Assembly (NCBI GenBank): GCA_963719225.1 | Contig: CAVRAY010000001.1 | Location: forward strand, 2,816,001 to 2,880,000 | DNA: 64,000 nt | Direction: 5' to 3' | From: Thermoanaerobaculia bacterium | GTDB taxonomy: Bacteria; Acidobacteriota; Thermoanaerobaculia; UBA5066 | Shown: positions 2 through 56,720 of the stretch, piece by piece | How positions within the stretch are numbered: the stretch's first letter is position 1 | How the letters are laid out: every line of letters starts with the position of its first letter | The notes under the pieces: generated by a model | Database searches by the model: none | What the model was told of the DNA's origin: nothing | The model's input: the letters and a program-made list of their open reading frames with translations, nothing else | Translations under genes and position numbers: made by a program

Positions 2-3000
2 ATCGGGAGTCGTTCGAAGAGGATTTCGGGATTTTCTTCGAAGGGTAAGAAGGGAGAAGAAGCCGAAGCGCGGGGCGCGCGCAGCTCAGCCCCGCGCCGC
101 GGAAGCGGCGAATCGCCCTCTTCCCCATTCGAAGAAATCCCCGGTCATCCTCACAACAGCCACCTCCCTGGCCCATTGGGCCTCGTCCCCCCTCCCCTCC
201 CAGCAGGAGTTTCTTATCCCCGCCTGACGCTGCTCGCCGAGAGCCAGAGAGGCTACCGGAACCTCTGCTCGCTTCTCACCGCGGCCGCCGCGGGGAAGCC
301 GAAGGGGCAGGCGGCGGCGACGTGGGAGGAAGTCGCCGCCCACGCGGAAGGGCTGCACGTCCTGACGGGGGGCGAGGAGAGCGTCGTGACGCGCGCGTTG
401 ACATCGCGCGACGCGGGAGGTTTCGACGCGGCGCGGCGCGAGCTCGACCGCCTCGCGGCGCTCTTCCCGGGACGCGTGCACATGGAGCTGCAGCGCCACT
501 TCCTGCGCGAGGAGGAGCACCTGAACCGCGCGCTCCTCGATCTCGGGGGCGCCGCGCGCCTGCCCGTCCTCGCGACGAACGGCGCGCGCTACGCACAGCG
601 GAAAGACAAGGACCTCTTCGACGCGCTCACGTGCATCCGCCACCACACGCATCTCGACGCGGCCGGCACGAAGCTGCACGCGGGGCGCGAGCGCCACCTG
701 AAGTCCGCGGCCGACATGGAAACTCTCTTCGCGGATCTGCCGGGCGTCCTCGAAAGAAGCGCCGAGCTCGCGGGACGCCTTTCCTTCACGCTCGCGGATC
801 TCGGCTACCGCTTCCCCGCGTACCCGCTGCCGCCGGGGGAGACGCCGTCGTCGTTCCTCAGGCACGTCACGTGGGAAGGCGCGCGCTCGCGCTTCCGGCC
901 GCTCACGGGAAAAGCGCAGGCCCAGCTCCAGCGGGAGCTCGACCTCATCGAAAAGCTGGACCTCGCGGGCTATTTCCTCATCGTCTGGGACATCGTCAAC
1001 TTCTGCAAGAAGGAGCACATCCTCGTGCAGGGGCGCGGCTCGGCCGCGAACAGCGCCGTGTGCTACGCGCTCTCGATCACGGCGGTGGATCCCGTGAAGA
1101 TGGAGCTTCTCTTCGAGCGCTTTCTCTCGGAGGAGCGTGGGGAGTGGCCCGACATCGACCTCGACCTACCCTCGGGCGACCCGCGCGAGAAGGTGATCCA
1201 GCACGTCTACAAGACGTACGGAGCCGACGGCGCCGCGATGACGGCGAACGTCATCACGTACCGCGACCGTTCGGCCGCGCGCGAGATGGCGAAGGCCCTC
1301 GGGTTCTCGCCGGAGCAAGTGGACACGATCGCGAAGCACCTCGGGACGTGGAGCTTCGGCGAGTACCGCGACGGCGCGGCCGACCTCGGCAAGGAGATGG
1401 CGGCCGCCGGGTTCGACCCCGCGCATCCGCGGGTCGCGCACTTCGGGAAGCTCTTCATGCGCGTCCAGAGCCTCCCCCGCCACCTCGGGCAGCACTCGGG
1501 CGGAATGGTCGTGGCGATGGGCCGGCTGTCCGAGGTCGTCCCGCTCGAGCCCGCCGCGATGGAAGGGCGCGTCGTCATCCAGTGGGACAAGGACGACTGC
1601 GCGGACCTCGGCATCGTGAAGGTGGACCTCCTCGGCCTCGGGATGCTGGGCGCGATCGAGAAGATGCTGCCCCTGATCAAGGCGCACGAGGGCGTGGAGG
1701 TGGACCTCGCGCATCTGCCCGCGGGCGACCCGAAGGTGTACGAGCTACTCCGCGCGGCCGACACGATCGGCCTCTTCCAGGTCGAGAGCCGCGCGCAGAT
1801 GGCCTCGCTGCCCCGCCACGCGCCGAAGGTCTTCTACGACATCGTCGTGCAGGTCGCGATCATCCGGCCGGGGCCGATCGTGGGCGGGATGGTGCACCCG
1901 TTCTTCGACCGGCGGCAGGGCAAGGCGCCGGTCGAGTACCCGCACCCGTGTCTCGAGCCGATCCTGAAGCGCACGCTCGGCGTGCCGCTTTTCCAGGAGC
2001 AGCTCCTCCGGATCGCGATGGTCGCCGCAGGCTTCACGGGGGGCGAGGCGGAAGAGCTGCGCCGCGCGATGGGTTTCAAGCGCTCCGAGGAGCGTATGGG
2101 CGCGATCGAGGAGCGGCTGCGCGCGGGCATGGCGAAAAAAGGGATCACGGGGCCCGCGCAGGACCAGATCGTCAAGTCCATCACGTCGTTCGCGCTCTAC
2201 GGCTTTCCCGAGTCGCACGCGGCCAGCTTCGCGCTCATCGCGTACGCGAGCGCGTGGCTGAAGGCGCATCACCCGGCGGCGTTCACGGCGTGCCTCCTGA
2301 ATGCGTGGCCGATGGGCTTCTACCATCCCGCCACGATCGTGAAGGACATCCAGCGCAAGGGCACGCCGGTGCTGGCCATCGACGTGAATTTTTCTGGATG
2401 GGATTGCAGGATAGAAAGAGAAGAGAAGAGGGCGGCCACGCGCCCGCCCCTCGCCGTGCGTCTGGGCATGCGCTTCATCAAGGGGCTGAAGCAGACGACC
2501 GGGGAAGCCATCGAAAAGGAACGAGAGAAGAGATTCTTCGAAGATGTCGCGGACTTTTCTCGCCGGTGCCGCCTGCGTCCCGACGAGATGACCTTGCTCG
2601 CCTACTCCGGTTCTCTTTCGTCCCTCGGCGTCTCCCGCCGCGCGGCGCTGTGGCAGGTGGCGGAGGTCTCACGCCCTCTCGGCGCTCTCTACGCAACTCT
2701 TCCTCTTTCTCTTTCCTCGCGGAACTCTCCTCTCCCCGAGATGTCCCTGATCGAAGAGACGACCGCCGACTACCGGGCGACGGACCTCACGGCGGGGCCG
2801 CATCTCCTCGAGCACCTCAGGCCATTTCTGTCCGCGCAATCGATCCTCTCGGCCGCCGAGCTGTCCGGCGCCAGAGAGGGGAACGCGTGAAAACCGCGGG
2901 CGCCGTCATCGTTCGCCAGCGCCCCGGCACCGCGAAGGGCTTCGTCTTCCTGTCGCTCGAGGACGAAAGCGGCATCGTGCAGGCCATCGTGCGCCCCGAT

Positions 3001-3153
3001 CTCTTCCGGGAGAACCGTTCGGTGATCGTGGGCTCCGGAGGCCTCGTCGTGGAGGGAAAGCTCCAGAAGGAAGGCGGAAACCTCTCGGTGAGGGCCGAGC
3101 GTTTCTGGCCGCTTCCCTCGTTGCCGGACCTTCCCAGCCACGACTTTCGCTGA
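2..3153 (+). CDS. dnaE2: Error-prone DNA polymerase DnaE2; 5' end lies upstream of the window; frameshift near 2878-2881
   Basis: ORF 176-2890 has PHP and Pol III alpha motifs (QGRGSAANS, PDIDLD, GQHSGG, YGFPESHA), and the frame is open from base 2. The OB-fold and C-terminal SHDFR tail (VIVRQRPGTAKGFVFLSLEDE...SHDFR) are in another frame ending at 3153. Confidence 0.93.
31..140. repeat. Convergent pair of TTC-N3-GAA motif (cores 34-42 + and 128-136 -)
   Basis: ATTTTCTTCGAAGGGT on + and GATTTCTTCGAATGGG on -; centres 94 bp apart. Confidence 0.7.
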
Positions 3154-3162
3154 GGCTCCGCG

Positions 3163-5142
3163 TCAGCGCCCCGCGATTCGCGCCGCTTCCTGCAGCTTCG
3201 AGGCGGACGCCGCGAGAGCGTCGAGCAGCCGGGTCGTCTCGGCCTCGACCGAACCGTCGCCATGCAGCGCCCGTCGAAGGCCGGGCAGCGTGTCCGTTCC
3301 GCAGCCGGTCTCGGCGGAGGGCCCGAGGAGAAGATTGCGGCGCGCGAACTCGGGTGCAGCTCCGTCGTGAAAAGCGGCCATGGCGTCGAGAAGGAGGGGT
3401 TCGATCTTCTCCGCGCCGAGGCGTCGGCGCGCGGCTCCGAGCGATTCCCACCCGCGGGCCGCGAGGCGCAGGCGCAGGACCGCCGCGAAGAGCTCGCTTC
3501 GCCGCGCGAGCCGCCCCGACGCCGGATCCTTCGAGAGCTTGGCGAGCTCGTCCTCCAGAAACGTCGCGACCTCGGAGAAGCGCCACGGCGGCTCGGGAGA
3601 TTCCGCAAGCACCGATGTGTAGAGCGCCAGGATGCGCGCGAGGGTCGCGCTGACGCGGTAGCCGGGATCGAGGATCCGGCCGAGGAGGTACGGATCGTCG
3701 TATGCCGAGTGGTATTGCGGGTATGTGCGCCGCCCGAAGCCGAGCTCGACCGACGGGATGCCGCCGAGGCCCAGGAAAGGCGCCGTGTCGCCGCTGAAGC
3801 CCGGCAGCTGCATGGTCCCGCGGAGCGAGAGCAGGACGTGACCCGAGGCGGGATCGATCACGTGGCCGAGAACTTCGTCGAGCGATTCGCGCATGCCAGG
3901 CGAGACGTCGGCCATGAAATCGAGAGCACGCACGGAGGAGTCGACGTAGAGGAAAGCCGCCATCGGCGGCGCGCGCGCTGCCAGGCGATGCTCCACCCAG
4001 AGCGTGGAGCCGAGCATCCCGTACTCCTCGCCGTCGAAGAGCGTGAAGACGATGTCGCGTTCTCCCTTCCAGCCTTCGCGCGCGAGAGCCGAGAGAGCCG
4101 CCGCGGCCTCGAGGACGGCGGCGACGCCCGAAACGGGATCGACGGCGCCGTTCACCCAGGCGTCCGTGTGCGCGCCGACGACGAGGGCGCCGGCGTCGCG
4201 CCGGCGCCCCGCGAGCGTCGCCGTGACGTTCCGGAGCACGCGCGCTTCCGTGCGCGAACGCGTGCGGAGCCGCACGGTTTCCCGGGTCGCTCCGAGTCGG
4301 TACGGAACCTTGAGCCATCCGGTCCACTCCTCGGGTGCGGGCGGGCCCTCCACGCGTCCGAGGAGATCCCTGGCGACGCTCTCCGATACGGGCAGTGCGG
4401 GCAATGCCGGACGAAGCCGCGGGAGAGAGCGGCACTCCGCGCAATCGGGAGCGCCCGGACGGAGGAAATAGCGCAGCATGGAGCCGCGCTGGACGGTCCA
4501 CGGGTTGAGGTACGGGCCGGCGGGAAAGTCTGGCTTGACGATCCCGAGGTCGCGCCGCTCCGGATAAAGGAGGAGGGCCGCGGCACCTTCCTCCTCGGCG
4601 AGAAGGGACTTCATGGAACGGCAGATGCCCTGGGCCCGTGCGAGGACGACCGCGCCTTTCACGGCGACACCCGCCCGGCGCAGGACGTCGTAATCCTCAC
4701 GCGCTCCGTGGTTCGCGTAGACGACGCGCCCGGCGACGTCCCCGTCCGGGACCCACGCGAAGAACGGCAGCTCGGCCGGGGCCGCGGCCGAGTAGGGATC
4801 GCCCGCCAGCTCGCGTTCGGCGAGGTCGAAGCCGCGGCCGGCGGCCCCTTCGACCGCGAGCGACGCCTCGACGGGCTCGGGGATTGCCACCGTCTGCTCC
4901 GAGATCGTCGCCTCGAGGCCTGCGGCGCGGAGGAGTTCAGCCGCCGCCTCCACGGCCGCGCGCTGCCCCGGAGTTCCCGCACGATGCGGGACGCGCGCGA
5001 GTGCCTCCACGTTTCGCTCCATCCGCACGGGGTCGACGAGCGTTTCGAGGCGCTTTGTACGGCGCGCAAGCGGGTCGCGCCCTCCACAGGCCGCGAGCGC
5101 AGTGAGGGCGAGTGCGACGGCAGCGCTCGGGCGGCGCGTCAC
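3163..5142 (-). CDS. M28 family (glutamate carboxypeptidase II-like) peptidase with PA domain, lipoprotein
   Basis: PHRAGT, HTDAW, VDP, GEEYG, YVD and YHS motifs; lipobox LAAC; GTG start overlaps the upstream stop (GTGA at 5139-5142). Confidence 0.85.
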   Translation of the reverse strand: MTRRPSAAVALALTALAACGGRDPLARRTKRLETLVDPVRMERNVEALARVPHRAGTPGQRAAVEAAAELLRAAGLEATISEQTVAIPEPVEASLAVEGAAGRGFDLAERELAGDPYSAAAPAELPFFAWVPDGDVAGRVVYANHGAREDYDVLRRAGVAVKGAVVLARAQGICRSMKSLLAEEEGAAALLLYPERRDLGIVKPDFPAGPYLNPWTVQRGSMLRYFLRPGAPDCAECRSLPRLRPALPALPVSESVARDLLGRVEGPPAPEEWTGWLKVPYRLGATRETVRLRTRSRTEARVLRNVTATLAGRRRDAGALVVGAHTDAWVNGAVDPVSGVAAVLEAAAALSALAREGWKGERDIVFTLFDGEEYGMLGSTLWVEHRLAARAPPMAAFLYVDSSVRALDFMADVSPGMRESLDEVLGHVIDPASGHVLLSLRGTMQLPGFSGDTAPFLGLGGIPSVELGFGRRTYPQYHSAYDDPYLLGRILDPGYRVSATLARILALYTSVLAESPEPPWRFSEVATFLEDELAKLSKDPASGRLARRSELFAAVLRLRLAARGWESLGAARRRLGAEKIEPLLLDAMAAFHDGAAPEFARRNLLLGPSAETGCGTDTLPGLRRALHGDGSVEAETTRLLDALAASASKLQEAARIAGR

Positions 5143-17369: not shown

Positions 17370-18418
17370 CGGAGCGAAAGAAGCTCATCCTCGTCGATGC
17401 TCGGAAGGCACGCGACTTCGGGATTGGAACGTACCTGCGGGGCCTCCTCTGCGGCCTCGCAAGCCTGGACCGCTTCGAACTCCGGGCGCTCGTTCTACCC
17501 GGCGACGGGGCGCTCCTTCCCGCGGGCGTCGGAACGACGCCCTGCGCGGCCGCGCATTATTCCTTCGGCGAGCTCGTGGCCGTCCGGCGGGCGATCTCGG
17601 CGGTGAAACCGGATCTCTTCCATGCCCCGCATTACGTCGTGCCCCTCTTCCCGCCACACGCCACGGTCGTCACGATCCACGACCTCATGCACCTCACCCG
17701 GCCCGAGCACGCGACGCCCGCGAAGCGCGCGTACGCGCGCTGGATGATCAGCCGCGCGCTGCGCCTTTCCGCCCGAGTCATCGCGGTGTCGGAGGCAACG
17801 AAGAAAGAAATTCTTGCTTTCGGACCCTCTCAAGGCCTCAAGGTCGAAGTGATTCCAAACGGCGTGGGAGAGAGATTTTTCTTAGAAGGTGAAGAGAAAG
17901 AATCTTCCTCTTATCTTCTCTTCCTCGGCAACGACAAGCCGCACAAGAATCTCGATGGTTTGCTCGCCGCCTGGCCGCGCGTGCGGGGTTCCTTTCCCAC
18001 GCTCACTCTTGTCCTCGCGGGCGTCGAGCCCGGGCGGTCGCTGCCCGAAGGCGCGAAGGCCATCGGCTTCGTGCCGGATGCGGACGTGCCTTCTCTTGTC
18101 GGCGGCGCCCGCGCGCTCGTCCTGCCCTCCTTCGCGGAAGGCTTCGGACTCCCGGTTCTCGAGGCGCAGGCGGCGGGCACGCCCGTCGCGTGCTCGGACC
18201 TCCCCGCTCTCCGCGAGGCCGCGGGCGACGCGGCGGTGTACTTCGATCCGCACGACGTCGATTCGATGATTAAGGGGATACAGAGAATTTTGAAAGAGGA
18301 AGAGCTTAGAAAGGGTTTGAGAAAGAGGGGACGGGCGCGGGCGAAGGAATACTCGTGGCGGCGCGCGGCGGAGCAAACCGCAGCTGTGTATGAAGATGTT
18401 CTTAGAAGGGTGACGTGA
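17366..18418 (+). CDS. GT4 glycosyltransferase
   Basis: TIHDL, KPHKN, AEGFGLPVLEAQ; TTGA overlap with the upstream stop. Confidence 0.9.
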   Translation: MTERKKLILVDARKARDFGIGTYLRGLLCGLASLDRFELRALVLPGDGALLPAGVGTTPCAAAHYSFGELVAVRRAISAVKPDLFHAPHYVVPLFPPHATVVTIHDLMHLTRPEHATPAKRAYARWMISRALRLSARVIAVSEATKKEILAFGPSQGLKVEVIPNGVGERFFLEGEEKESSSYLLFLGNDKPHKNLDGLLAAWPRVRGSFPTLTLVLAGVEPGRSLPEGAKAIGFVPDADVPSLVGGARALVLPSFAEGFGLPVLEAQAAGTPVACSDLPALREAAGDAAVYFDPHDVDSMIKGIQRILKEEELRKGLRKRGRARAKEYSWRRAAEQTAAVYEDVLRRVT

Positions 18419-24090: not shown

Positions 24091-25686
24091 TCAGGCTGCG
24101 CGCGCCGCCCGCAGGACCCGGGGCACGATGATCAACGCAGCGCCATACACGACGAACGTCGCCACCAGCGTGCTCGGGCGCCCGTGCGGGAGATCGTCGA
24201 TGAGCAGCTTGAGACCGGCAATCGCGAGCACCGGGTAGGTGAGGCGAGCGAGGGGGGCGAGCGTCGGGAGGCGCCTGAGCGAGGCGAGCAGCACGGACGC
24301 CGCGGCCAGGACGGCGCCACGTACCGCGGCGACCCGGCCGGCGTCGCCGTCGGGCGCGACGACGGCCGCCAGACCCAGCACGGCGAGCGCGCCGGCGCCC
24401 GCGATCGAGACGCATGCGAGACCGAACATCGCTCCGCGCGCAGGTCCACCGGTGCCCGAGCGGACGCGGGCCGCAAGGAGCGCCGCCGACGCGGCCGAGA
24501 GGGCGAGGACGACGAGAGAGTCTCTGTGTGGCGAGGCGCCAGCGTAGGGAGAGCCGAGGAAGGCGCGCCCGGCGAAACCGGCCAGGCCGGATGCGGCCGA
24601 TGCCACGAGGAGCAGGACCGCTCCATAGGCGGGAGCCATCGAGCCCGCGATCCGTGCCGGCGCGACGGCCGCCGCGAATCCGGCAACGCCCCAGACGAGC
24701 GAGGCGGGAACGTCCGCCAGGGGGGTCAGCCGCGAGACGGCGAAGACGGCGAGAAGAAGAGCCGCCCCGAGCTGGAGCGCCTCGAAGACGTCGGAATCCC
24801 CGGCGCGCCGCCGGATTCGCCGGACCGTCCCCACGAGGGAAACGGCGAAGAGCGAAAGCGCGAGCGCGAGAACGGCGTTCCGGGAGAGGCCCGCGTACGC
24901 CTCGGGCAGTCCCCCGGAACGTCCGGCGATCCAGACGGCTTCGAGCACGACGAGATCCGCGACGGCGGCCGGAACCCATGGAAGGCCGGCCCAACTTCTG
25001 CGGATCGAGGCCGCCCGCGCCCCCGCCACGAGGGCGACGAGAAGAGCGCCGAAGGTTACGAGAGCATGCGTCGTCACGAGGAGCAACGACGCGGTCGGGA
25101 CGACCGAAAGGACGGCGCCCCAGGCGAGAGCCGGTAGGTTGCGGTGGACGGACGCGCCGAGCGCGGCAGCGCCGACCGTGAAGAGCACGGCGGCCGCGGC
25201 CCTCGGACCGAACACGCCGAAACGGGTCGAGGCCTCCCAGACGAGGGGGCATGCAATGGCGAGCGCCGTGATACCCCACGCGGCTGCGGCCGCGTCGGAG
25301 CCCTTCCTCCCGGCCCGGTCCGCGAGGACGAGCCAGGTCAAGGCGTAGGCAAGGCCCAGCGTCACGCCCGCGCCGCGCGGAAACGCGCCCGAGTCGGTCA
25401 AGGCGCGAATGAGGAATGCCCCGGCGAGGACGAAAAGGCAGCGGCCCAAGAGGGCGACGATCGAGGGGGATGAGAGACCGGGAGATTTCTCAGAAAGCGC
25501 GCCAGGGAGCGTTGCGTCTCGCGCCGCCGTTTCCGCGTCTGCTGCGGCGGTGCGGCCGGCCTTATTACCTTCTAAGAAAGGGTGCTCTTCGGCTTTCTCG
25601 AGTGCCGCGACGCGCATCTCCACCGACCGGAGAGACCGGGCCAGGTCGGCGACCTGCTTCTCGAGATCGGAAACGAGGTCGTCCAT
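24091..25686 (-). CDS. Polytopic membrane protein (DUF2339-like), N-terminal coiled coil
   Basis: Many hydrophobic helices; ends LKLLIDDL...; at the end of the cytochrome operon. Confidence 0.7.
   Translation of the reverse strand: MDDLVSDLEKQVADLARSLRSVEMRVAALEKAEEHPFLEGNKAGRTAAADAETAARDATLPGALSEKSPGLSSPSIVALLGRCLFVLAGAFLIRALTDSGAFPRGAGVTLGLAYALTWLVLADRAGRKGSDAAAAAWGITALAIACPLVWEASTRFGVFGPRAAAAVLFTVGAAALGASVHRNLPALAWGAVLSVVPTASLLLVTTHALVTFGALLVALVAGARAASIRRSWAGLPWVPAAVADLVVLEAVWIAGRSGGLPEAYAGLSRNAVLALALSLFAVSLVGTVRRIRRRAGDSDVFEALQLGAALLLAVFAVSRLTPLADVPASLVWGVAGFAAAVAPARIAGSMAPAYGAVLLLVASAASGLAGFAGRAFLGSPYAGASPHRDSLVVLALSAASAALLAARVRSGTGGPARGAMFGLACVSIAGAGALAVLGLAAVVAPDGDAGRVAAVRGAVLAAASVLLASLRRLPTLAPLARLTYPVLAIAGLKLLIDDLPHGRPSTLVATFVVYGAALIIVPRVLRAARAA
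25482..25580. repeat. Convergent TTC-N3-GAA motif pair (cores 25487-25495 + and 25570-25578 -)
   Basis: GAGATTTCTCAGAAAG and CTTTCTTAGAAGGTAA (rev); centres 83 bp apart. Confidence 0.7.
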
Positions 25687-36244: not shown

Positions 36245-37398
36245 CGCGAAAGTCCCTCTTCCACGCTCCGGCGAAGGGCGTCCGAGGCGCCCCGGCGCAT
36301 GACGAGCACGCCGTCCTTGGAGTCCACGACCGCGACGTCCGACAACCCGACGACGCGCACGGGCCGCCCTTCGGCGAGGACGAGGTTGCCGGAACCTTCC
36401 ACCGCGGCAGCGGGGCCTTCGAGCACGTTCCGGCCCGAAGCTCCACCCCGGAACTCGAAGACCGCTTCCCACGAGCCGAGGTCGCTCCAGCCGCACGCGC
36501 AGGGGACCGTGAGCACCTCACGAGCCTTTTCCATGACGGCGACGTCGAAGGAGACGGAGGGGGATGAAGAGAAGATTTCTGCGAATAAAGACGAAGAGGA
36601 AGAGGGGGTTTCTTCGAAGGTGGAAGAACCAGCTCTTCGAGCGGCATGTGCGCGGCGAGCGATGTTCAGGATATCGGGACACGCCCTCTCCATTTCTTCG
36701 AAGAGCAGCGAGGCCCGGAACACGAAGATGCCGGCGTTCCAATAGAAGCGGCCGGAGGCGAGGAATTGCTGGGCGCGCGCCAGGTCTGGCTTCTCGATGA
36801 ACCGTACGACACGTCGTGCCGCGGCTCCCCCTCCCCTCTTCCCATTCTCAGAAATCTTTTCTTTATTCCCTTTTTCTTCAGCAGAAATTTTTTCTTTCTC
36901 TTCTTCTTCTTCGACCTCCATGTACCCGAATCCCGTTTCGGCGCGCGTTGGCGGAATGCCGAGCGTGACGAAGGCGTCGTGCGTGTGCGCCGCGTCCGCC
37001 GCCGCGCGCAGGCCGGCGAGAAATGCCGCCTCGTCGCGCACGGCCTGGTCGGAGGGAAGGACGGCGAGAACGGCGCCCGGCTCGCCCTCCGATGCGGCAA
37101 GCGCGGAGAGCGCGATCGCGGGCGCCGTGTTGCGCCGCACGGGCTCGAGGACGAAGTGCGACCGCGCCACCTCGGGCAGCTCGGCGAAGAGGAGCGCGGC
37201 GTGGGCGGCTCGCCCGGAAATGAAAACGTTCCCGGCGCCGGCAAGGGCGATCGCGCGCCGAAACGTCTGCTTCAGGAGTGATTCGCCGCCCGTCAGCGCG
37301 AGGAAAGGCTTCGGACGCTCGTTCGTCGAGCGCGGCCACAGGCGCGTGCCGCTGCCGCCGGCGAGGATGAGCGCGCGGAGGCTCCCAGGGTGAGACAT
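36241..37398 (-). CDS. manC: Mannose-1-phosphate guanylyltransferase (no cupin domain)
   Basis: LAGGSGTRLWP.S, RNTAPA, FIEKP, WNAGIF, WSDLGSW; two low-complexity insertions. Confidence 0.9.
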   Translation of the reverse strand: MSHPGSLRALILAGGSGTRLWPRSTNERPKPFLALTGGESLLKQTFRRAIALAGAGNVFISGRAAHAALLFAELPEVARSHFVLEPVRRNTAPAIALSALAASEGEPGAVLAVLPSDQAVRDEAAFLAGLRAAADAAHTHDAFVTLGIPPTRAETGFGYMEVEEEEEKEKISAEEKGNKEKISENGKRGGGAAARRVVRFIEKPDLARAQQFLASGRFYWNAGIFVFRASLLFEEMERACPDILNIARRAHAARRAGSSTFEETPSSSSSLFAEIFSSSPSVSFDVAVMEKAREVLTVPCACGWSDLGSWEAVFEFRGGASGRNVLEGPAAAVEGSGNLVLAEGRPVRVVGLSDVAVVDSKDGVLVMRRGASDALRRSVEEGLSR

Positions 37399-40109: not shown

Positions 40110-40198
40110 GACTTCTTAGAAGGGTGAGTGAAGTCGGGGCGGCGTGTCTCGCCTCGGCCGAACAAGAACGCGCTGCGTTCATTCACCTTCTAAGAAAA
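40110..40198. repeat. Convergent TTC-N3-GAA motif pair in the pgpA-recA divergent intergenic region
   Basis: GACTTCTTAGAAGGGTGA (+) and TTTTCTTAGAAGGTGAA (-); centres 75 bp apart. Confidence 0.75.
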
Positions 40199-41958: not shown

Positions 41959-44900
41959 GTGCTGATGCGGCGGGGCCGAGCGCTCTCCTTCCTTCTCCGG
42001 CTCCTGCCGATCGCGGCCATGGGGCTGACGGTCCCGGCCCGCGCCGCTTCATCTCCGACCACGCTTTCTGCCTGGTTGAAGATCGTTCCAGGAGCCGCCC
42101 GCATCGGGCGGCTCACCTCCCTCGCCGCCGCCCCGCTCTCGCCAAACGCGCCCGGTCTCCTCCTGAAGCTCGACTCGGAAGGTTGGAAGCCCGGCAATGC
42201 CGCCGCGCGGGACGCGGTTCGCGCTCTGGCCAGGGAAGCGCATCGCCGGGGCTGGCGGTGGGGCCTCTCGCTCGAGCTGCCGGACGTGACGATTCCGGCG
42301 GATGTGCGCGCCGCCGAGGCGGCCACCGTCGAAGAGCTGTGGCCCGGACTCGGAGAGATTCTCAGGGTCGCAAAGGATGCGGACCTCGTCGCGATCGACT
42401 TCCAATACACGAGGGTTCCGGGAATTCATGACTTCGGGCACCCTCAGGAAGGCACATTCGACCCGAAGGCGCGGGCCTATTTGCTTAGAAAGGTAGCTGC
42501 GGGTGCGCGCGCGGCAGCCCCCCAAGCGCGTCTCGTCCTCGCCGCCGGTCCCCTCGCGAGAGGCGAACTTTTCCCCGCCGACGTCCGCAAACTCCTTTCA
42601 GAAGAAAATACCGCGTATTTCGACTTCGTCGGCGCGACCCCTCTCGCGTCGCCAAAACCCGGCGAAGTCCGAGTGGCGATCGATGACGTCGCCTTCGGCA
42701 AGCCCGCTCTCGTCGACCTCGATTCCTCCGGAGTCCGCTCCCCTGCGGACCTCCTCGCCGCCGCCGCGCGCCTCGCGCCGGAGAACGTCCCGTTCGTCGT
42801 CGCGAGCCCGGCGTGGGATCCCTCGAGGGACGCCGCCCTCGAGCGCCTCGCACGCCTCCTCGACGGCGATTTCGGGCCCGATTCCCGCGCGGCGACGGCC
42901 TCGGCGGCGGGCGGCGAAGCCCTCGACGTCTTCCGATTCGTCGAGAGAGCCGATCTCGGCGGCGTCGTCCTGGTCCCGGGGACCTCGCCGGCGGCGGGCC
43001 TCCCGTCCGGCACCTTCACGCTGACCCTCGACGAGACGGCATACGCCTCGGCCGAAGTCTTCGAGCTTGCGACCGGCGCCTCGAAAAAATTCGAAGTTCC
43101 CGCCCGCTCCGTCCCGGCCCGTCTCTCGCTCTCTCTCGGAAACGGCCCTCTCGGCGTGCGTCTCCTCGCCCGGGAAAAGCTCCCTTCGGAGGCCGCGAAG
43201 GCCGCTGTCGGCGTCGCCGTGACTCGCGGCATCACGGCCGACGAGATCCTCGCGAAACATCAGGCGTGGCGCGCCGCCCGCGACTCACGGTGGAAGACGC
43301 TCACGGCGCGGAGCACGATGTCGATGCGTTTTCGCTTCGCGGAATTGAACAACACGTTCGACCTCGCGCTCGCGGGGCCGTTCTTCTACGAAAAAGGCGG
43401 CAGCTACGACTGGGCCTGGAGCGAGGCGTACTTCAACGGCGTGCGCTGGAAAGGGAAGAAGATCCCCGAGCTGCCTCTCCTGCAGCCCGAGAAGGTCTCG
43501 GACATGCCGCTCGCCCTGACCTTCGACGACGCCTACGCCTACACGCTCGCGGGGCAGGACACCGTGAACGGCATCCCCTGCTGGGCGCTCGATTTCACGC
43601 CTCGCGCCGCGGCCTCCGACAAGCCTCTCTACGCCGGAACGGTCTGGGTCGCCAAGGCGGACTTCGCGGCAATCCGGACGCGCACGCGCCAGCTCAACCT
43701 CACGGCCGAGATCCAGGCCGTGGACGAGATCTCGGATTTCGGCGAGGTGCCCGCTCCCGACGGCGGGCCTCCTCTTCGCCTCCCCACGCACACGACCGGA
43801 CAGTGGATTCTCAAGACGTTTTCGCGAACCACCGTGATCGAGCGGGAGAGCACGCTTTCGAACGTGCGGCTCGATCCCCCGGGGTTCGTCGCCGAGCGTC
43901 AGGCGGCCTTCGCCTCGCCGGACGTCATGGTGCGGGACACCGAGAAGGGCGTGCGGTATCTCGAGAAGACGAAGGAAGGCGGGCGCGTCGTCACCTCCGA
44001 TACGAAGCGCACGCATCTGTTCGGTCTCGGCGGTGTCTTCTACGACAGCTCGTTCGATTACCCCCTCCCCCTTCTCGGCGTGTATTACGTCGACCTCGAC
44101 TTTCACAAGAGGCACGAGCAGCTGCAGGTTTTTTTCGGTGGGGTCCTCCTCGCCGCCTCGTACAACCAGCCGCGCCTCTTCGGGACGGCCATCGATGCAG
44201 GCATCGACGTCTTCGGCATCGCGATCCGGGGATCGGACGCGCTGTTCGTGGACGGGACGGAGGACAAGCTCCAGCGTGTGAAGTCGCGCTCGTTCGCGGG
44301 GAGCTTCAAGGCGGGCATTCCCCTCGGGCGGCACGTGAAGCTGTCGGCGACGCTCGGCGAGACCCATCGCGACTTCGCCGCCGACGACACGGAGACGTCG
44401 CCCGCGTTCGTCGTTCCGTCCGACCACTGGGTCACGCGGCTCGAGGGGCAGGCCGTCTGGGACCTCCGCGGATGGGCGCTCTCCGGACGGTACGCATGGA
44501 ACAGGCGCTCGCGCTGGGATCCGTGGGGCCCCGCCGGCAACCCGGACTACGCCCCGGGCAAGGACGAGTACCGTACGTATTCCCTCCAGCTCTCCAAGGA
44601 CTTTCACCTCCCGCGCTTCCAGCGCATTCAGGCGTCTCTTTCGTATCTCGGCTCGGACAACACGGACCGCTTCTCCAAGTACAGCTTCGGGTTCTTCGGC
44701 GGAACATCCCTGCGGGGCTTCCGCTCGGGTGCGCTGCGGGCCGAGGAGGCCGTCACGTCGAGGTTCGCCTACGGATACGTCTTCGGCGACGTCCTGCGCC
44801 TCGAGGTCGTCTACGACGACGCGCGCGTCAAGGACCTCGCGGCCGGGCTCGACTGGGCCTACTTCAGCGGAGCGGGCCTCTCGGGCGAGGTGCCCGGCCC

Positions 44901-48689: not shown

Positions 48690-48788
48690 GATTTTCTTAG
48701 AAAGTGAATGCATCCCCGAGCATCCCGACCGCGCGCCGTAGTTTGTTCGGCGTCGCCTTTCTCGCCTGCGTCTTCGCCTTCGAAGCAC
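48690..48788. repeat. Convergent motif pair (cores 48694-48702 + and degenerate 48779-48787 -)
   Basis: GATTTTCTTAGAAAGTGA after a GAAGAAGAAGAGGAA run; TGCTTCGAAGGCGA (rev); 85 bp apart. Confidence 0.55.
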
Positions 48789-49900: not shown

Positions 49901-49923
49901 CAGCGGTAAGATGCACCGCCGAG

Positions 49924-50982
49924 ATGAGCCAGACCTCGCTGAAAGACCGGCTGCTCGTCGCCACGCTCCCCGCCGACGAGAGGGAGAACGGGCGGCGCCT
50001 CCTCTCGGCTCTCGCGCCGATCGAAGGCAAGCTGAAGCTCGTCGAGGCCCGCCTCCAGGAGCGCACCCGCTCGGGCATTCCCACGATCTCCCTCATCGGC
50101 GACTACCTCGTCGAAGGCGGCGGCAAGAGGATCAGGCCCGCGCTCCTCCTTCTCGGCTCGCATCTCCTCGGGTGCGAAGGCGACCGGGACGTGAACTACG
50201 CGGCGATGATCGAGTTCATCCACACGGCGACGCTGGTGCACGACGACATCATCGACGACGCCGAGCTCAGGCGCGGCCGGCCGAGCGTGAACCGGCGGTG
50301 GGGGAACGAGCTGACCGTCCTCTTCGGCGACTTCCTGTACATGAAGTCCATGGAGATCGCGCTGGAGGAAGGGGACCTCAGGGTGCTGCGCCTTCTTTCG
50401 GACGTGACGCTCCGGATGACCGAAGGCGAGATCATCGGCGCCGAGCGGCGCGGGCTCCTCGACCTCACGCTCGAGGGCTATCTCGACATCGTGCGCCGCA
50501 AGACCGCCCTCCTCTTCGCGGGCGCCTGCAAGATCCCGTCGTTTCTCGTGACGGAAGCGTTCGGCGAGAGCCGCGAAGTCTGGGGCGAGCGCCTCTGGGA
50601 ATACGGAATGTCGCTCGGGATCGCTTTCCAGCTCCAGGACGACCTGCTCGACTACACCGCGAAGGAAGCGGACCTCGGCAAGCCCGTTCTTTCCGACCTC
50701 AGGGAGGGCAAGCTCACGCTGCCCCTGATCCTTTGCCTGCCGCACGCGACGCGGACCGAGCGCAAGCTCGTCGAGACCGTCGTGGCCGAGCAGGGCTTCG
50801 CTTCGGTCACGCCCGAACAGATTCTCGGGATCGTCCATCGCCTCGGCGCCCTCGAGCGCGCCCACGAGATGGTCGAGACCCACGCGGAGAGGGCCCGGGA
50901 AATCGCCTCCCTCTTCCCCGAAACGGCCTCGAGGGAGGGTTTTCTCCTCGCCGCCGAATACGCCGCAAATCGGCGTAAATAA
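49924..50982 (+). CDS. Polyprenyl diphosphate synthase
   Basis: GGKRIRP, HDDIID..RRG, FQLQDDLLD. Confidence 0.93.
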   Translation: MSQTSLKDRLLVATLPADERENGRRLLSALAPIEGKLKLVEARLQERTRSGIPTISLIGDYLVEGGGKRIRPALLLLGSHLLGCEGDRDVNYAAMIEFIHTATLVHDDIIDDAELRRGRPSVNRRWGNELTVLFGDFLYMKSMEIALEEGDLRVLRLLSDVTLRMTEGEIIGAERRGLLDLTLEGYLDIVRRKTALLFAGACKIPSFLVTEAFGESREVWGERLWEYGMSLGIAFQLQDDLLDYTAKEADLGKPVLSDLREGKLTLPLILCLPHATRTERKLVETVVAEQGFASVTPEQILGIVHRLGALERAHEMVETHAERAREIASLFPETASREGFLLAAEYAANRRK

Positions 50983-50999
50983 TTAGAAATAGAAGATTT

Positions 51000-51109
51000 A
51001 ATTTCTTCGAATGAAAATAGGTTAAAGGCTAAGATTGCCTAATGATCGCCCCGCCATAGCCATCTGTACACCTAGGGCCCGAATTTAGTAAGGCACTTTC
51101 GAAGAAATC
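51000..51109. repeat. Convergent motif pair in AT-rich intergenic region (cores 51003-51011 + and 51098-51106 -)
   Basis: AATTTCTTCGAATG and GATTTCTTCGAAAGTG (rev); 95 bp apart. Confidence 0.7.
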
Positions 51110-51132
51110 CCTTCTTTTTTCTGGTTCTTATC

Positions 51133-51161
51133 TTGATTTCTACGATTTTAGGTTCTAAGCT
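51133..51161 (+). promoter_or_regulatory. Sigma70-type promoter
   Basis: TTGATT-17 bp-TAAGCT upstream of the TPR gene. Confidence 0.55.
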
Positions 51162-51223
51162 CTCCCCAACATATCGTGGGTCACAGATCAGCTCCCACAA
51201 CCCGTGAACGGTCAGGAGAGCGA

Positions 51224-51658
51224 ATGATCGAAAAGCTGTTCCGGTCTTTCCGGTCGCCCTTCAGCGCAACCTCCCGCGAGGACTTCACCCTCGAGGAGGA
51301 GGTCGCGCTTTACCGCCACCGCGCGGAAGTCGCGCTCGAAGAGGAACGCTACAACGACGCCCTCGTATTTCTCGCGAAGATCCTGCGGCTCAATCCCTAC
51401 GATCTGCAGGCGCGGATGACCGTCGCCCACACGTACCATTACGCGCTGAGCGAGCCGACGAAGGCCCTCCTCACGTACGAGAAGGTCGTCGCGGCGTCCG
51501 GTTACGACGAGTCGAATTCCTATGCCGTCGCGGCCCGCGAAGGCATTCGCGAGCTGGAGGGAGCGATCGACACGGCGGTCCTTCCCCTCGACGAGCTCAT
51601 GGAAGAGGACGAATCCCTCGAAGACGACGGCGGTCGCGTCCACAACGTCGCCGGATAG
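51224..51658 (+). CDS. TPR-repeat protein with acidic tail
   Basis: YNDALVFLAKILRLNP..., A...YEKV TPR pattern; AGGAG RBS. Confidence 0.75.
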   Translation: MIEKLFRSFRSPFSATSREDFTLEEEVALYRHRAEVALEEERYNDALVFLAKILRLNPYDLQARMTVAHTYHYALSEPTKALLTYEKVVAASGYDESNSYAVAAREGIRELEGAIDTAVLPLDELMEEDESLEDDGGRVHNVAG

Positions 51659-51769
51659 CGGGCTTCCCCCGAATCCCTTTTCTTCCATCCTTTCAAGTCG
51701 CCATCGACCCGCTCCCGCGGGCCGGTGACGACGTTGACGCGCCGGCCGGAGCCGATGTTAAGATCGAAC

Positions 51770-52528
51770 GTGCCCCGGCTGGCGACCTCCTCCCCCCCTC
51801 ACGCCGTCGCCGTCATCCCCTCCCGCTACGGGGCGGAGCGCTTTCCGGGTAAGCCGCTCCATCCGATCGCCGGAATTCCCATGGTCCTACGGGTCCTCGA
51901 GCGCGCGCGCGCGGCGAGACGGATTTCGACGGTCCTCGTCGCGACAGACGACGAGAGGATCGCGCGAGCGGTCGAAACCGCCGGAGGCCGGGCAGTGATG
52001 ACGGACCCGGCGTTGCCGTCGGGCACGGACCGGGTCTGGGCGGCCGTGAAAGACCTGGAAGTGGATGTCGTCCTGAACGTGCAGGGGGACGAGCCTCTGA
52101 TGGATCCCGAGAACATCGACCGCGTGGCGGGTTTTCTCCTGGAGCATCCGGAGTTTCCGCTGGCGACGGTCGCGCTTCCCATCGACGACCCAGCCGAGAT
52201 CGCGAATCCGAACAACGTCAAGGTCGTGCGCGGCGACGACGGCAGGGCTCTCTACTTTTCGCGCGCCGCTCTCCCCTACCGCCGGAGGCCCGAGACCGCG
52301 CTGCCGACGCTCAAGCACCTCGGCCTCTACGGCTACCGCAAGGACGCGCTGAGGCGCTGGACGAGCCTGCCTCAGCACGCCCTCGAGCGCGCCGAGAGCC
52401 TCGAGCAGCTCCGCGCGCTCGCGGCGGGAATGGCGATGGCGGTGCTGGACGCGGCCAGCGACTCGATCGGAGTGGACACGGAAGAAGATGCAAAGAGAGT
52501 AGAAGAGATTCTTCTCGCGGAGGTGTAG
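51770..52528 (+). CDS. kdsB: 3-deoxy-manno-octulosonate cytidylyltransferase
   Basis: IPSRY...[26 protein letters not shown]. Confidence 0.96.
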
Positions 52529-52529
52529 G

Positions 52530-54221
52530 GTGGGAACCAAATACATTTTCATCACCGGCGGCGTGGTCTCGGGCCTCGGCAAGGGCATCGCCGCGGCGTC
52601 GATGGGCGCGCTCCTGGAAGCGCGGGGGTTCCGCGTCACTCTCCAGAAGTTCGACCCCTACCTGAACGTGGATCCCGGCACGATGTCGCCGTTCCAGCAC
52701 GGCGAGGTCTACGTGACCGACGACGGCGCCGAGACCGACCTCGACCTCGGGCACTACGAGCGGTTCACCTCCGCCGTCACCGGGAAGGCGAACAGCGTGA
52801 CGACCGGAAAGATCTATCTCTCGGTCATCGAGAAGGAGCGCCGCGGCGACTTCCTCGGGAAGACGGTTCAGGTCATTCCGCACATCACGGACGAGATCAA
52901 AGACTGCATCCGCCGCGTCGCGGGCGACAACGACGTCGTCCTCGTCGAGATCGGCGGCACCGTCGGCGACATCGAGTCTCTGCCGTTCCTCGAGGCGATC
53001 CGCCAGTTCCGCCAGGACGTGGGCCGCGGCAACGCGATCAACGTGCATCTCACGCTCGTGCCGCACATCGCGGCGTCCGACGAGCTGAAGACGAAGCCCA
53101 CGCAGCACTCCGTCAAGGAGCTTCTCTCCATCGGGATCCAGCCGGACATCCTCCTCTGCCGGGCCGACCGCTCCATTCCCGAGGAGATGAAGAAGAAGAT
53201 CGCGCTCTTCTGCAACGTGGACGAGCGGGCCGTCATCACGGCGCGCGACGTCCCGTCGATCTACGAGGTGCCGCTCGCGTTCGCGCGCGAGGGGCTCGAC
53301 GAGATCCTCCTCGACTACCTCTCCCTTCCCCACTACGACCGCGACCTCGCGAAGTGGGATTCGATCGTGAACCGCGTCAAGAACCCCCAGGAGGAGGTCA
53401 CGATCGCGTTCGTGGGCAAGTACGTGCAGCTCGGGGACAGCTACAAGTCCCTGAACGAGGCGCTCCACCACGGCGGCATCGCGAACAACGTGAAGGTCAG
53501 GATCTCGTTCGTCGATTCCGAGGAGCTGGAGACGGCCGGCTTCCCCGAGACGCTCGCCCGCGCGGACGCGATCCTCGTGGGGCCGGGCTTCGGCCGGCGC
53601 GGCATCGAAGGGAAGCTGAAGGCGATCCGACTCGCGCGTGAAACGAAGGTCCCGTTCTTCGGAATCTGTCTCGGGCTTCAATGCGCCGTCATCGAATACG
53701 CGCGGAACGTCTGCGGCATCAAGGACGCGAACTCGACGGAGTTCGAGCCGAACGCGCCGCACAAGGTCATCTTCATGCTGCGCGACCTCATCGGGGTCGA
53801 AGCGCTCGGCGGCACGATGCGTCTCGGGAAGTACCCGTGCGACCTCGCGGAGGGCACGCTCGCGCGGCGCGCGTACGGCGAACCGACGATCTGGGAGCGC
53901 CACCGTCACCGCTACGAGGTGAACCAGGAGTACCTGCCGGCGCTGCGCGACGCCGGCATGACGTTCTGCGGCATGTCGCCGGACCGGAAGTTCGTGGAGA
54001 TGATCGAGCTCTCCGACCACCCGTGGTTCCTCGGCTGCCAGTTCCACCCCGAGTTCAAGAGCAAGCCCACCGCGCCGCACCCGCTCTTCAAGGACTTCGT
54101 CCGCGCCGCCCGCGCCCACAAGCACGCGCGGCAGGAAGGTGTCGACAAGAAGAGCGCCGAGCTGGTGCCCGCCGTCGTCGCGCCGGCGAACCTTCCGACC
54201 CCGAACGGCCAGTCGGCGTGA
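52530..54221 (+). CDS. pyrG: CTP synthase
   Basis: [37 protein letters not shown]. Confidence 0.99.
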
Positions 54222-54445
54222 CGGACGTCGTCTCCTTCGACCCGAAGAGCCGCTACGGGAAGACGGCGGAGCGCTGGGGCAACCTTCTCCTCCCGGAGGG
54301 CGCCGCCCGCATCGACACGCGCTTCGCCTTCGAGGGCCAGCCCGGGACGACGTATCGCGTGCTGCGCGAAAACGTCTTCCCGCAGGATCCGGCGAAACGC
54401 CTTTATTACTACCTGCGCACGTCCGACAACCCGAACAACTCCTGA
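54218..54445 (+). CDS. Small hypothetical protein or gene remnant
   Basis: GTGA overlap with the pyrG stop; 75 codons with genome-like codon usage. Confidence 0.45.
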
Positions 54446-54452
54446 CGCGCGC

Positions 54453-56720
54453 TCAGGAGCAGAGGGCCGACAGAGCCCGGGAAGCGCGGTCGATCTTCCG
54501 GTAGACGGGGATTCCGCCGCGCTGGAGGACGGCGACGAAATCGTCGTAGAGGCGTCCGGAGTCGACGTTCACGACGAGCGGCTTCTTCGTCGCGCGGAAG
54601 AGGCGCAGCAGCTCCTGGGCGAGCGCGCCCTTCGAAAACAGGTTCTCGGAGTGCGCCCCGAAAGGATCCGGCGCGAGGATGTCGAGCGACGGCGTGACGG
54701 GGATCGGAGACACGAGAAGGGAATCCACGCCGGGATCGTCGAGGAGCGCCGCCGCCGCTTCCACGAACGCGGGTGTCTCCGCCATGGGCGTCGCGTCGAT
54801 GGGGTTCGTCGCATGGGCGATGGCCGGAAGGCACGCGCGAAGACGGGCGAGCGTCGGTTCCGCGAGCGTTGCCGGCGTCAGGCCGTAGAGCTTGTCCAGA
54901 ACGGCCGCGCATTCGAAGCCGGCGTTCGAGAGCACCGCGAGACGCCGGCCCGCGGGCAGCCGGTCGCCGAGCATCGTATAGGCCTTCGTGTAGTCCTCGA
55001 ACATGTCGAGCGACTGCGCGACGAGAACGCCCGCACCCTCGAGAAGCGCTTTCGCGACCGCATAGTCGCCGGCGAGCGAAGCCGTGTGGCTGCGCGTGGC
55101 CTCGGCGCCGAGCGCCGTCTTGCCAGCCTTGAAGAGAATGACGTGGCGTCCCTCCTGCGTGACGCGGCGCGCCACACGCGCGAACCGCTCTCCGTCCATC
55201 GGCGCGAACCCTTCGACGTAGAAGACGAGGAGGCGGATGGTCGCGTCGTCGGCGAAGTACTCGAGGAAATCCGCCGCAGTGAGATCCATCTGGTTGCCGT
55301 ACGAGATCGACGCGCGGGGGAACACGATGCCGTCGAGGTTGCTCGTGAGCGAGACGAGGTACGCCCCGCTCTGGCTGACGGCCACGAGGCCGTCGCCCGG
55401 CGCGTCGTGGAACGGCAGCTTGTACTGAGGAAGGAAGAAGGTGTTGTACTGCCTCTTCGAGACGATGCCGAGGCAGTTGCCGCCCACGAGCACGGGCCCG
55501 CCGTCCGGCCTCGCGTGCGCGGCGGTCAGGGTTCCACGGAGTCGCGCTTCGAGATCGGCGTGGCCCGCCTCGCCGAAGCCGCCCGGAATCAGAATCACGG
55601 ACTCGGCTCGGCCGCGGGCGAGTGCTTCCACGACTTCCGTCGCCGCGGGGGCCGGCACGGAGACGACGGCGAGGTCGACTCTCTCGGGCAGAGCGTCCAC
55701 GGACGGGACGCATGGCACGCCGTCGATCGATTTCTCCTGCGCGTGGACCGCGAAGAGGTGGCCGTAGGCGATGCCGTCGGACTGCTTGAGGTTCCGGAGG
55801 ATGATCCGGCCCGGGTTCATCGCGTGTGCGGAAGCGCCGATGACTGCGGCGCTCCGGGGGGCAAGGAGTCGAGAGATCTTGGAGAGGGGACGCGGCGAAA
55901 GAGCAAGGCGCCGGGAGGAGATCCGCGCCTTCCCGTCCGCGACCACCCATCGCCCATCCGTCGTGAGCAAGAGCGGGTTTACTTCCAGTTCTTCAAGAGT
56001 CGGATTGCCCAGTGAGTTGTCAGGAGAATAGGAGAGAAGATTCTTAGAGAGGTTTTCGAGGCGAACGGCCACCTCGTCGAGCACGAGCGGCGCCTGCGCC
56101 TGCCCTCTATTCCTTTCAAAGAAAATCTTCAACGCCGGATTCTTCTCGACTCCAGCCCGGAGGCCCCGCTCCACCTCTCCGGGCTGCAAGATCACAGTCG
56201 TCGCCCCCGGCGCAAGCTCGCCGTACCACTCGGTCAGAACGCCGCCGAGGCCGAAGACGAGGACGGGCCCGAACGCGGGGTCGTGCTTGAAGGAGAGGAG
56301 CGCCTCGGCCGCGGGTGTGCCGGAGGCGGGAACGAGCTTCTCCACGACGAGGATCCCGAGGCGCTGGGCTGCGGGCCCTCGGCGGGAAACGTTTTCCCAC
56401 ATCGTCCTCGCCGCAGCGATGACCGACGCAGGAGATTTCTTTGAAAATGAGAATCCGCCGACGTCGGACTTGTGGGCGAGATCCGGTGAGACGATCTTGA
56501 GGACGACTTCGTCCCCTCTCGACCCTTCTAAGAAATCTTCAATCTCCGTGGGCACCAGCCCCGGCGCGCCGCTCCAGAAGACGTGTCGCGGCACGTCGAA
56601 GCCCGCCGCGCCGAGCAGCGCGTAGACCTCGTGCTCGAAGAGCGTCGCGCGGCCGTCCGCACGCGCCTTCCGGAGGATCGCCGCCGGTGAAACGGCGTCT
56701 ACCGCGGCCGCTCCGCTCAT
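54453..56720 (-). CDS. ADP-forming acyl-CoA synthetase (ATP-grasp domain N-terminal to CoA-binding domain)
   Basis: VLKIVSPDLAHKSDVGG, DPAFGP, EVNPL, GGNCLG, SQSGA, SHTASLAG. Confidence 0.9.
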   Translation of the reverse strand: MSGAAAVDAVSPAAILRKARADGRATLFEHEVYALLGAAGFDVPRHVFWSGAPGLVPTEIEDFLEGSRGDEVVLKIVSPDLAHKSDVGGFSFSKKSPASVIAAARTMWENVSRRGPAAQRLGILVVEKLVPASGTPAAEALLSFKHDPAFGPVLVFGLGGVLTEWYGELAPGATTVILQPGEVERGLRAGVEKNPALKIFFERNRGQAQAPLVLDEVAVRLENLSKNLLSYSPDNSLGNPTLEELEVNPLLLTTDGRWVVADGKARISSRRLALSPRPLSKISRLLAPRSAAVIGASAHAMNPGRIILRNLKQSDGIAYGHLFAVHAQEKSIDGVPCVPSVDALPERVDLAVVSVPAPAATEVVEALARGRAESVILIPGGFGEAGHADLEARLRGTLTAAHARPDGGPVLVGGNCLGIVSKRQYNTFFLPQYKLPFHDAPGDGLVAVSQSGAYLVSLTSNLDGIVFPRASISYGNQMDLTAADFLEYFADDATIRLLVFYVEGFAPMDGERFARVARRVTQEGRHVILFKAGKTALGAEATRSHTASLAGDYAVAKALLEGAGVLVAQSLDMFEDYTKAYTMLGDRLPAGRRLAVLSNAGFECAAVLDKLYGLTPATLAEPTLARLRACLPAIAHATNPIDATPMAETPAFVEAAAALLDDPGVDSLLVSPIPVTPSLDILAPDPFGAHSENLFSKGALAQELLRLFRATKKPLVVNVDSGRLYDDFVAVLQRGGIPVYRKIDRASRALSALCS
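56038..56127. repeat. Convergent motif pair (cores 56041-56049 + and 56115-56123 -)
   Basis: AGATTCTTAGAGAGG and GATTTTCTTTGAAAGG (rev); 74 bp apart. Confidence 0.7.
56432..56537. repeat. Convergent motif pair (cores 56437-56445 + and 56526-56534 -)
   Basis: GAGATTTCTTTGAAAATG and GATTTCTTAGAAGGGT (rev); 89 bp apart. Confidence 0.7.

Follow-up and report, generated by a model that had tools for sequence, protein, structure and literature searches.

Chromosome-wide DNA motifs served by a dedicated reader protein are few, the known examples being matS, the Noc- and SlmA-binding sites (NBS/SBS), parS, KOPS, Chi and the DNA uptake sequences and uptake signal sequences (DUS/USS); to our knowledge, none of them uses a polar pair of sites with a minimum spacing as its unit. 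According to the available text of the corresponding reports, MatP at matS and XerD at XDS keep SMC complexes away from the terminus (PMC11894783, PMC11840125, PMC4786541), and XDS are half-dif-like sites at which XerD unloads Smc-ScpAB (PMC11894783, PMC11840125). At yeast origins, as described in the accessible part of one study, opposed sites for the origin recognition complex (ORC) support MCM loading best when they are 70-90 bp apart, with loading still working up to 300 bp and with helical phase being irrelevant (PMC12440816). The DNA considered here is a window of 64 kb (C1:2816001-2880000) from a Thermoanaerobaculia bacterium whose genome of 4.75 Mb (two contigs, C1 and C2; 67.7% GC; designated G000) contains hundreds of copies of an asymmetric element of about 45 bp, most of them arranged as two copies that face each other. 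A protein of the window is 76-82% identical to its three nearest named relatives in the databases, all from Thermoanaerobaculia. This element appears to be kept by selection in such head-to-head pairs and is likely to be bound by a protein. No match to Rfam was found within the window, queries of the open-access literature (supplements excluded) on the motif, the taxon and the arrangement gave no description of this motif and no comparable paired-site system was found in the literature searched.

Number, polarity and spacing of the element

A matrix iterated to convergence and applied at a threshold of at least 17 bits identified 829 sites in G000 (422 on the plus strand and 407 on the minus strand) with the consensus RRRRATTTCTTMGAAGGKGAAKRGG, compared with 4 (at least 18 bits) to 11 (at least 16 bits) in a triplet-shuffled genome. 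The most over-represented 10-mer of C1, TTTCTTAGAA, is present in 189 copies against the 1.2 expected from an order-4 Markov model. In the element, the core TTTCTTMGAARG is bordered by a purine-rich flank on its outer side and by the flank GKGAAKRGG on its inner side, with GAAGA(G) words recurring every ~6 bp around a single inverted word. Genes were called with a home-made dicodon model, so that coding boundaries are approximate; 430 of the 829 sites lie in coding segments, divided equally between sense and antisense (215 each), and the density of sites is about tenfold higher between genes than within them, with sites packed against gene ends and starts. A preliminary description, made from the window alone, had held that the motif is read in different frames and uses otherwise scarce TTA codons, and both statements extend to the whole genome: all six reading frames are used (in proteins of the window the motif is read as FLEG, VLRRV, FSSKG, LSKNL, PFEEI and FSKKS) and, of 184 TTA codons in called genes, 62 are no more than 25 bp away from a site. 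In the comparison with codon-preserving shuffles that the description had recommended, coding segments contain 406 sites versus 45-55 in five within-gene synonymous shuffles. Codons within that distance of a site make up 0.6% of all codons.

The arrangement of the sites is strongly polar. A strong partner (at least 17 bits) is found on the convergent side of 67.8% of the 829 sites and on the divergent side of 1.7%, pairs within 400 bp are convergent in 330 cases and divergent in 14, and 583 sites belong to a convergent pair within 300 bp; over 800 kb of a second species, convergent neighbours likewise outnumber divergent ones (126 versus 8). The spacing has a floor at about 65 bp, below which very few pairs are found. 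In both species its most frequent value is 75-79 bp, and longer spacings tail off towards about 250 bp. The modal bin holds 46 of the 347 pooled pairs and 16 of the 68 second-species pairs that have no counterpart in G000. A spike at 93 bp was traced to one paralogous family, which from its sequence features we take to be Ser/Thr-kinase-like and in which the DNA between the partners is ordinary kinase sequence; its pairs were removed or cut to three before spacing was tested. The convergent bias anticipated in the preliminary description is thereby matched by the counts, whereas the accompanying periodicity of about 10.5 bp is absent, both in G000 (p ~0.2, n = 228) and in the pooled set (p = 0.3). 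This lack of helical phasing argues against the rigidly looping or wrapping dimer that had been proposed, and points to sliding or to a flexible link; the interpretation offered in the preliminary description is thus supported in part. Other periods reached p < 0.05 at 8.5, 12 and 12.5 among the 13 tried and were not accepted as real. A second mode at about 137 bp, picked post hoc (30 pooled pairs versus 16 expected), is represented by 1 of the 68 pairs private to the second species and is unconfirmed; since it was not repeated there, the idea of a 60-bp ladder falls.

Partner arms are no more complementary to each other than to shuffled partners (z 0.1), and the duplex energy of the arms, -37.2, is close to the -36.8 +/- 0.5 obtained for shuffled partners. 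Core complementarity after GC stratification gave z 1.3 and -0.1, an initial excess of core partner identity (z 3.0) having fallen to z 1.3 on stratification and to -0.1 in the second species; a single position, -3, kept partner identity (z 2.4-2.9) with no explanation. Since the partners are not complementary, selection does not act on a folded single strand. The inner DNA is GC-rich (70.5%) and consists of unrelated or native coding sequence, as the preliminary description had noted for the window. That it is often ordinary gene sequence, together with the missing partner co-variation, argues against a miniature inverted-repeat transposable element (MITE), a REPIN or an attC hairpin. In four DNA runs from relatives, neither excision nor inversion between partners was seen in the 15 of 184 joints displayed.

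Conservation, chromosomal distribution and phylogenetic range

Selection acts on the DNA of the sites rather than on the encoded protein, and the sites overwrite conserved residues. In a ManC-like gene of the window, sites occupy identical codons across the genus and are made up of tandem copies in a loop that the outgroups (G025 among them) lack, together with substitutions in alignable helices. Of the 92 alignable sites in 480 kb of alignment at 77% identity, 67 still score at least 17 bits, and A or T is retained at 76% of 107 third codon positions within cores versus 15% of 16,603 elsewhere, which bears out the earlier view that the motif is conserved at the DNA level. Retention also follows the pairing: of 57 pairs, 44 could be aligned, and of these 34 have retained both arms, seven a single arm (four and three, respectively, for the two arms) and three neither (p = 0.04), and paired sites are retained more often (106/123) than single ones (30/42; p = 0.04). 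Polarity, spacing floor, mode and joint retention together suggest that the two sites act jointly. Genes shared with the second species carry 19.3 sites per 100 kb versus 6.7 in unshared genes, genomic islands carry 8.3 versus 32.9 elsewhere, and the most conserved fifth of genes carries 5.4.

With dnaA at C2:326 kb and a dif-like site at the skew maximum (C1:2,037,590), 226 sites fall in the origin half of the chromosome and 603 in the terminus half. C1 alone contains 294, 232 and 146 sites in successive 0.5-Mb bands away from dif, and the overall rise in density from origin to dif is about threefold. Mapping against origin and terminus, as the preliminary description had recommended, therefore reveals a gradient along the replication axis of the kind that chromosome-maintenance motifs show. 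The gradient persists in intergenic gaps (from 0.6-0.7 to 1.6-1.7 sites per kb) and within classes of third-position GC content, and in G019 the site density tracks the orthologous position in G000 despite a rearranged assembly. Paired sites show no leading-strand bias (327 of 646 leading), and single sites are slightly lagging (77 of 183 leading, p = 0.04). Density per kilobase is 1.38 in tandem gaps, 1.01 in convergent gaps and 0.77 in divergent gaps, an order that fits neither operators nor terminators, with tandem gaps being the richest and divergent gaps the poorest. In six of eight motif-bearing loci, dif has a site no more than 190 bp away. A second parA-parB operon adjoins the dif-like site (C1:2037871-2039533), in this genus as well as elsewhere in the order, in other families; it encodes a ParB distinct from that of the origin, for which no target is known, and a canonical parS-like palindrome is separately present near the origin. 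As a separate observation, five IS110-like insertion sequence (IS) copies (C1:1112861, 2198905, 2200891, 2206368 and 2209403) carry one strong single site each, about 300 bp downstream of the transposase gene.

The range of the motif is narrow. The exact 12-mer was found in every one of 24 further genomes from the genus and in none of 16 from other families of the order, and in a class-wide draw of 151 genomes more than eight hits were obtained in the genus only. Strict pairs occur in 29 of 29 genus genomes (17-127 each) and in seven of eight sister-genus genomes (1-20 each), and in none of 26 other members of the family; kin genomes are not independent samples. A phylum-level draw of 401 genomes that did not include the sister genus yielded, outside the genus, one pair, located at the ends of a long perfect palindrome. 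Viral contigs gave one match for each of two patterns, the contig matching the first pattern having seemingly unrelated genes. Weaker versions of the motif stand at several orthologous positions in the sister-genus genome G082, which suggests that the system is older than the split of the two genera and that it has since been either eroded in the sister genus or expanded in the main one. The phylogenetic edge is sharp, with two genera bearing the pairs, 26 family members lacking them and counts of 0-127 inside the boundary; the gene for the reader should therefore be findable by presence and absence, and the birth or decay of the system should be traceable.

Sites in the 64-kb window

The 24 cores of 9 bp listed in the preliminary description were all recovered at the same coordinates and on the same strands, and were rescored with the genome-trained matrix, from which all bit scores below are taken; 18 reach at least 17 bits, three score 10-15 and three are poor. 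The seven convergent pairs recognized earlier have the spacings then given (94, 83, 75, 85, 95, 74 and 89 bp), but two of them, 25487/25570 and 48694/48779, each have one weak arm, since 25487+ scores 11 bits and 48779- scores 4 bits. The first pair, 34+/128- (34..136; 94 bp apart; 33 and 30 bits), is carried by an in-frame loop insertion in the PHP domain of DnaE2, whose open reading frame (ORF) starts upstream of the window, and a single site of 18 bits follows in the same gene (2534..2542, plus strand). Positions 1-3153 of the window together with the 4 kb upstream contain imuA-like, imuB-like and dnaE2 genes; the PHP-domain loop insertion of dnaE2 that bears the pair is long, and the gene has a frameshift near its 3' end.

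A GT4 glycosyltransferase gene contains a strong single site, read as FLEG (17879..17887, plus strand, 36 bits), and two same-strand sites at its 3' end (18303..18407, plus strand), of which 18303 is weak (13 bits) and 18399 scores 24 bits. The pair with the weak plus arm, 25487+/25570- (25487..25578; 83 bp; 11 and 21 bits), sits in the 5' portion of an ORF on the minus strand that has no Pfam match. The cluster in the ManC-like nucleotidyltransferase gene (36577..36886) comprises 36577+, 36610+, 36845- and 36878-, combines tandem duplicates in a loop insertion with overwritten helices and is conserved across the genus, with the 36610 copy being missing in a related strain; core 36694+ is poor (7 bits). 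The divergent gap between pgpA and recA holds the pair 40113+/40188- (40113..40196; 75 bp; 22 and 33 bits), and a weak single site lies at 42482..42490 (plus strand, 15 bits). Downstream of purH, the strong 48694+ (36 bits) faces the poor 48779- (4 bits) at 85 bp (48694..48787). The pair 51003+/51098- (51003..51106; 95 bp; 30 and 22 bits) occupies the gap after a polyprenyl synthase gene, core 51153- being poor (-2 bits). Two further pairs lie in one acyl-CoA synthetase gene: 56041+/56115- (56041..56123; 74 bp; 18 and 34 bits), in the ATP-grasp part, and 56437+/56526- (56437..56534; 89 bp; 27 and 30 bits). Outside the window, C1:56000-62000 is a low-complexity T/G-rich stretch with runs of K, T, Q and N in translation, and is probably an assembly artefact.

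Proposed mode of action, alternatives and known systems

The reading that is tentatively preferred, with somewhat less than even confidence, is that of an oriented site of about 45 bp read by a protein that acts head-to-head on duplex DNA in the management of the terminus side of the chromosome. That the partners are not complementary speaks for a protein acting on duplex DNA. Such a protein would bind each asymmetric site on the duplex, and two opposed bound copies would act together on the intervening 65-250 bp by sliding or through a flexible bridge. Such joint action might, for example, consist in loading, unloading or stalling a machine that encircles DNA, as Smc-ScpAB does, in the interval between them, and its outcome would probably be that the terminus half of the chromosome is managed. 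The geometry, which resembles that of the opposed ORC sites, and the terminus gradient, which recalls MatP/matS and XerD/XDS, favour a paired platform for loading, unloading or stalling. A more specific form, possible but doubtful, is that of hundreds of origin-like loading platforms, at which opposed pairs would place a DNA-encircling machine in the gap, or remove it, independently of helical phase and in a terminus-graded manner, with an effect powerful enough to reshape conserved proteins. A small share is left for mechanisms not thought of.

Several candidates for the reader were considered. The second ParB is present in almost every one of 41 genomes from the order and has the same recognition helix in motif-free genomes. 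Smc occurs once in each of five genomes and is common to motif-free relatives; the genome also encodes ScpA and ScpB, which we take to be such from their sequence features. One HU/IHF paralogue, located beside ftsK, nearly follows the clade, being present in 26 of 29 genus genomes and in eight of eight sister-genus genomes, yet two motif-free genomes have it as well. Of 40 tyrosine-recombinase matches, 29 were compared, and no group among these was restricted to motif-bearing genomes. No histone fold was found in five genomes, no MatP (PF06303) in five motif-bearing genomes and no Y1 (RAYT) transposase (PF01797) in three genus genomes, the last being found in the motif-free G130, and no clade-confined DNA-binding gene lies beside dif, xerC, xerD, smc or dnaA. 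An AT-hook-like small basic protein was likewise set aside, as it is family-wide (56 of 63 genomes). This protein (C1:3836048-3836539, minus strand) has 164 residues, two helical repeats and an RGRP stretch, belongs to no Pfam family and, judged by its sequence, is possibly a new nucleoid protein. On a different note, a frame of about 800 residues with a strong HHH_3 match, probably Tex, occurs, among the matches listed, in most motif-free genomes of the family and in neither motif-bearing genus. An unannotated protein could be the reader, as could a shared one whose specificity has changed.

Several points weigh against the preferred reading. The search outlined above, restricted to a short hand-picked list without a genome-wide screen, found no binding protein, the tested candidates being either absent or common to motif-free relatives. 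About a fifth of the sites (183 of 829) stand alone, at a strength equal to that of paired ones, and the test of joint retention is small. The origin-half count depends on a circular order of C2 and C1 deduced from skew, dnaA and dif, and the genome is rated 6% contaminated. A strict-pair count ranging from 0 to 127 across both genera suits drive as well as it suits an essential function, and uptake sequences, too, are depleted from islands and from the genes that are most conserved.

The last two points lead to the main rival, considered unlikely, in which the motif is a DNA uptake signal that, like DUS/USS, spreads by molecular drive, but for which the unit read would be an inverted pair; a receptor with two binding sites could, for example, engage U-bent DNA as it enters. 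Sites are scarce in unshared genes, in islands and in the most conserved genes, the same footprint that uptake-like drive leaves according to the available text on uptake sequences (PMC2817400). Hundreds of lineage-specific copies in all frames would also fit uptake, as would the presence of ComEC in five of five genomes and of ComEA-type domains in 61 of 63, and the pairs, noticed post hoc, that are situated at comEC and the two comEA-like genes or immediately ahead of them (C2:230143-230224, C1:1007221-1007669 and C1:1876799-1877225), one of which lies in the site-poor origin region. Known uptake sequences, however, act singly, and inverted DUS pairs are found mainly in terminators, whereas here polarity, the 65-bp floor and the 76-bp mode are strict and convergent-gene gaps are not the richest class; moreover, the threefold rise towards the terminus is not expected for uptake, and the competence genes are common to motif-free relatives. 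Improbable, in turn, is a core that represents the arm of a tyrosine-recombinase site (half-dif, XDS-like), the pair being a dif-like site with a greatly expanded spacer that is bound without recombination. The convergent polarity equals that of two dif arms, the terminus bias and the sites near dif in six of eight loci are in keeping with it, and the 11-bp core agrees with the left dif arm of Bacillus subtilis, as given in the available text, at nine of 11 positions (PMC3025954) and with the reverse complement of the right dif arm of this genome at seven of 11. Against this, the core matches the genome's own left dif arm at just six of 11 positions, the purine-rich flanks have no counterpart in dif and no recombinase group followed the motif in the comparison above; the reading is further weakened because XerC, XerD and the dif arms are common to the motif-free G123 and G130 (60-71% identity).

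A transcription-related element of a global regulator (operator, insulator, bidirectional roadblock or RNA signal) has a similarly small chance. The higher density between genes, the packing at gene ends and starts and the pair upstream of recA would agree with it, but 430 of 829 sites are intragenic with exact strand symmetry, so that an ordinary regulon is unlikely, as the preliminary description had argued; divergent, promoter-bearing gaps are the poorest class, hairpin co-variation is missing and, unlike what a LexA (SOS) box would show, no pair is found upstream of lexA, uvrA, uvrB or ruvB, lexA having a different repeated box. The latter (C1:1590050-1590312) consists of two AT-rich boxes that start with TTAGG and end with CCTTATTTT, a candidate SOS operator of the lineage which presumably differs from known LexA boxes. 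That the pairs are what is left of a miniature mobile element (a MITE, a REPIN or the ends of attC-like cassettes) is largely refuted and very improbable. Inverted doublets are over-represented and better kept than singlets, as with REPINs in the accessible part of their description (PMC3116915), and some pairs lie in loop insertions; yet ordinary coding sequence fills the interval between partners in the 93-bp kinase family as in many others, substitutions in alignable helices give rise to sites, these hold their positions across species, partners do not co-vary, there is no selected hairpin and no RAYT-family gene, and the sites are mostly not extragenic. The pairs differ from a MITE in having no shared internal sequence, and from integron attC sites in that the arms do not co-vary and the sites are not concentrated in the integron array. 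That array was noted separately at C1:1115079-1115996, where a tyrosine recombinase, presumably integron-integrase-like, is followed by an array of short genes on one strand (small genes at 1100-1115 kb) and IS copies, with relatives in G004, G177 and G130. The transcriptional and mobile-relic readings fit worst.

The motif also shows that a signal in the DNA without a coding role is able to overwrite conserved residues and to bring about loop insertions across hundreds of proteins, an imprint that matters for the interpretation of these proteomes. Among described systems, matS/MatP and XDS/XerD likewise involve a dispersed, terminus-biased motif in a genome with Smc. They involve tens of sites within a domain, compared with about 830 in a gradient here; in the present case, moreover, no MatP is present, the site is asymmetric rather than palindromic and the unit is the pair. 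The TTTC...GAA shape of the core and the second ParB beside dif recall parS/ParB and NBS/Noc, but the three-base centre and asymmetric flanks set the motif apart, and its gradient is opposite to origin clustering and terminus exclusion. KOPS/SRS and Chi are similarly asymmetric, purine-rich, dispersed and denser towards the terminus, while the motif lacks their leading-strand skew; octamers containing GGGGAG, 72-85% of which are on the leading strand genome-wide, constitute a KOPS-like word apart from the paired motif. DUS/USS share with it the hundreds of lineage-specific copies in all frames, the protein imprint and the higher frequency in less conserved genes, as far as the available text goes (PMC2817400), and differ from it in that strict convergent pairs with a floor and a mode, also within genes, and a terminus gradient are found here. 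The opposed ORC sites offer an analogue of the geometry, not a homologue, with two opposed asymmetric sites, a similar spacing and no phasing in the part of the study available (PMC12440816); here, however, the setting is bacterial, the inner DNA is GC-rich and without an unwinding element, there is one dnaA origin and one skew switch, and no loader was found. In its broad kind the element is a chromosome-wide motif with a dedicated reader, each known family of such motifs differs from it in at least one defining feature, and there is a real chance that the paired unit represents a new kind of system.

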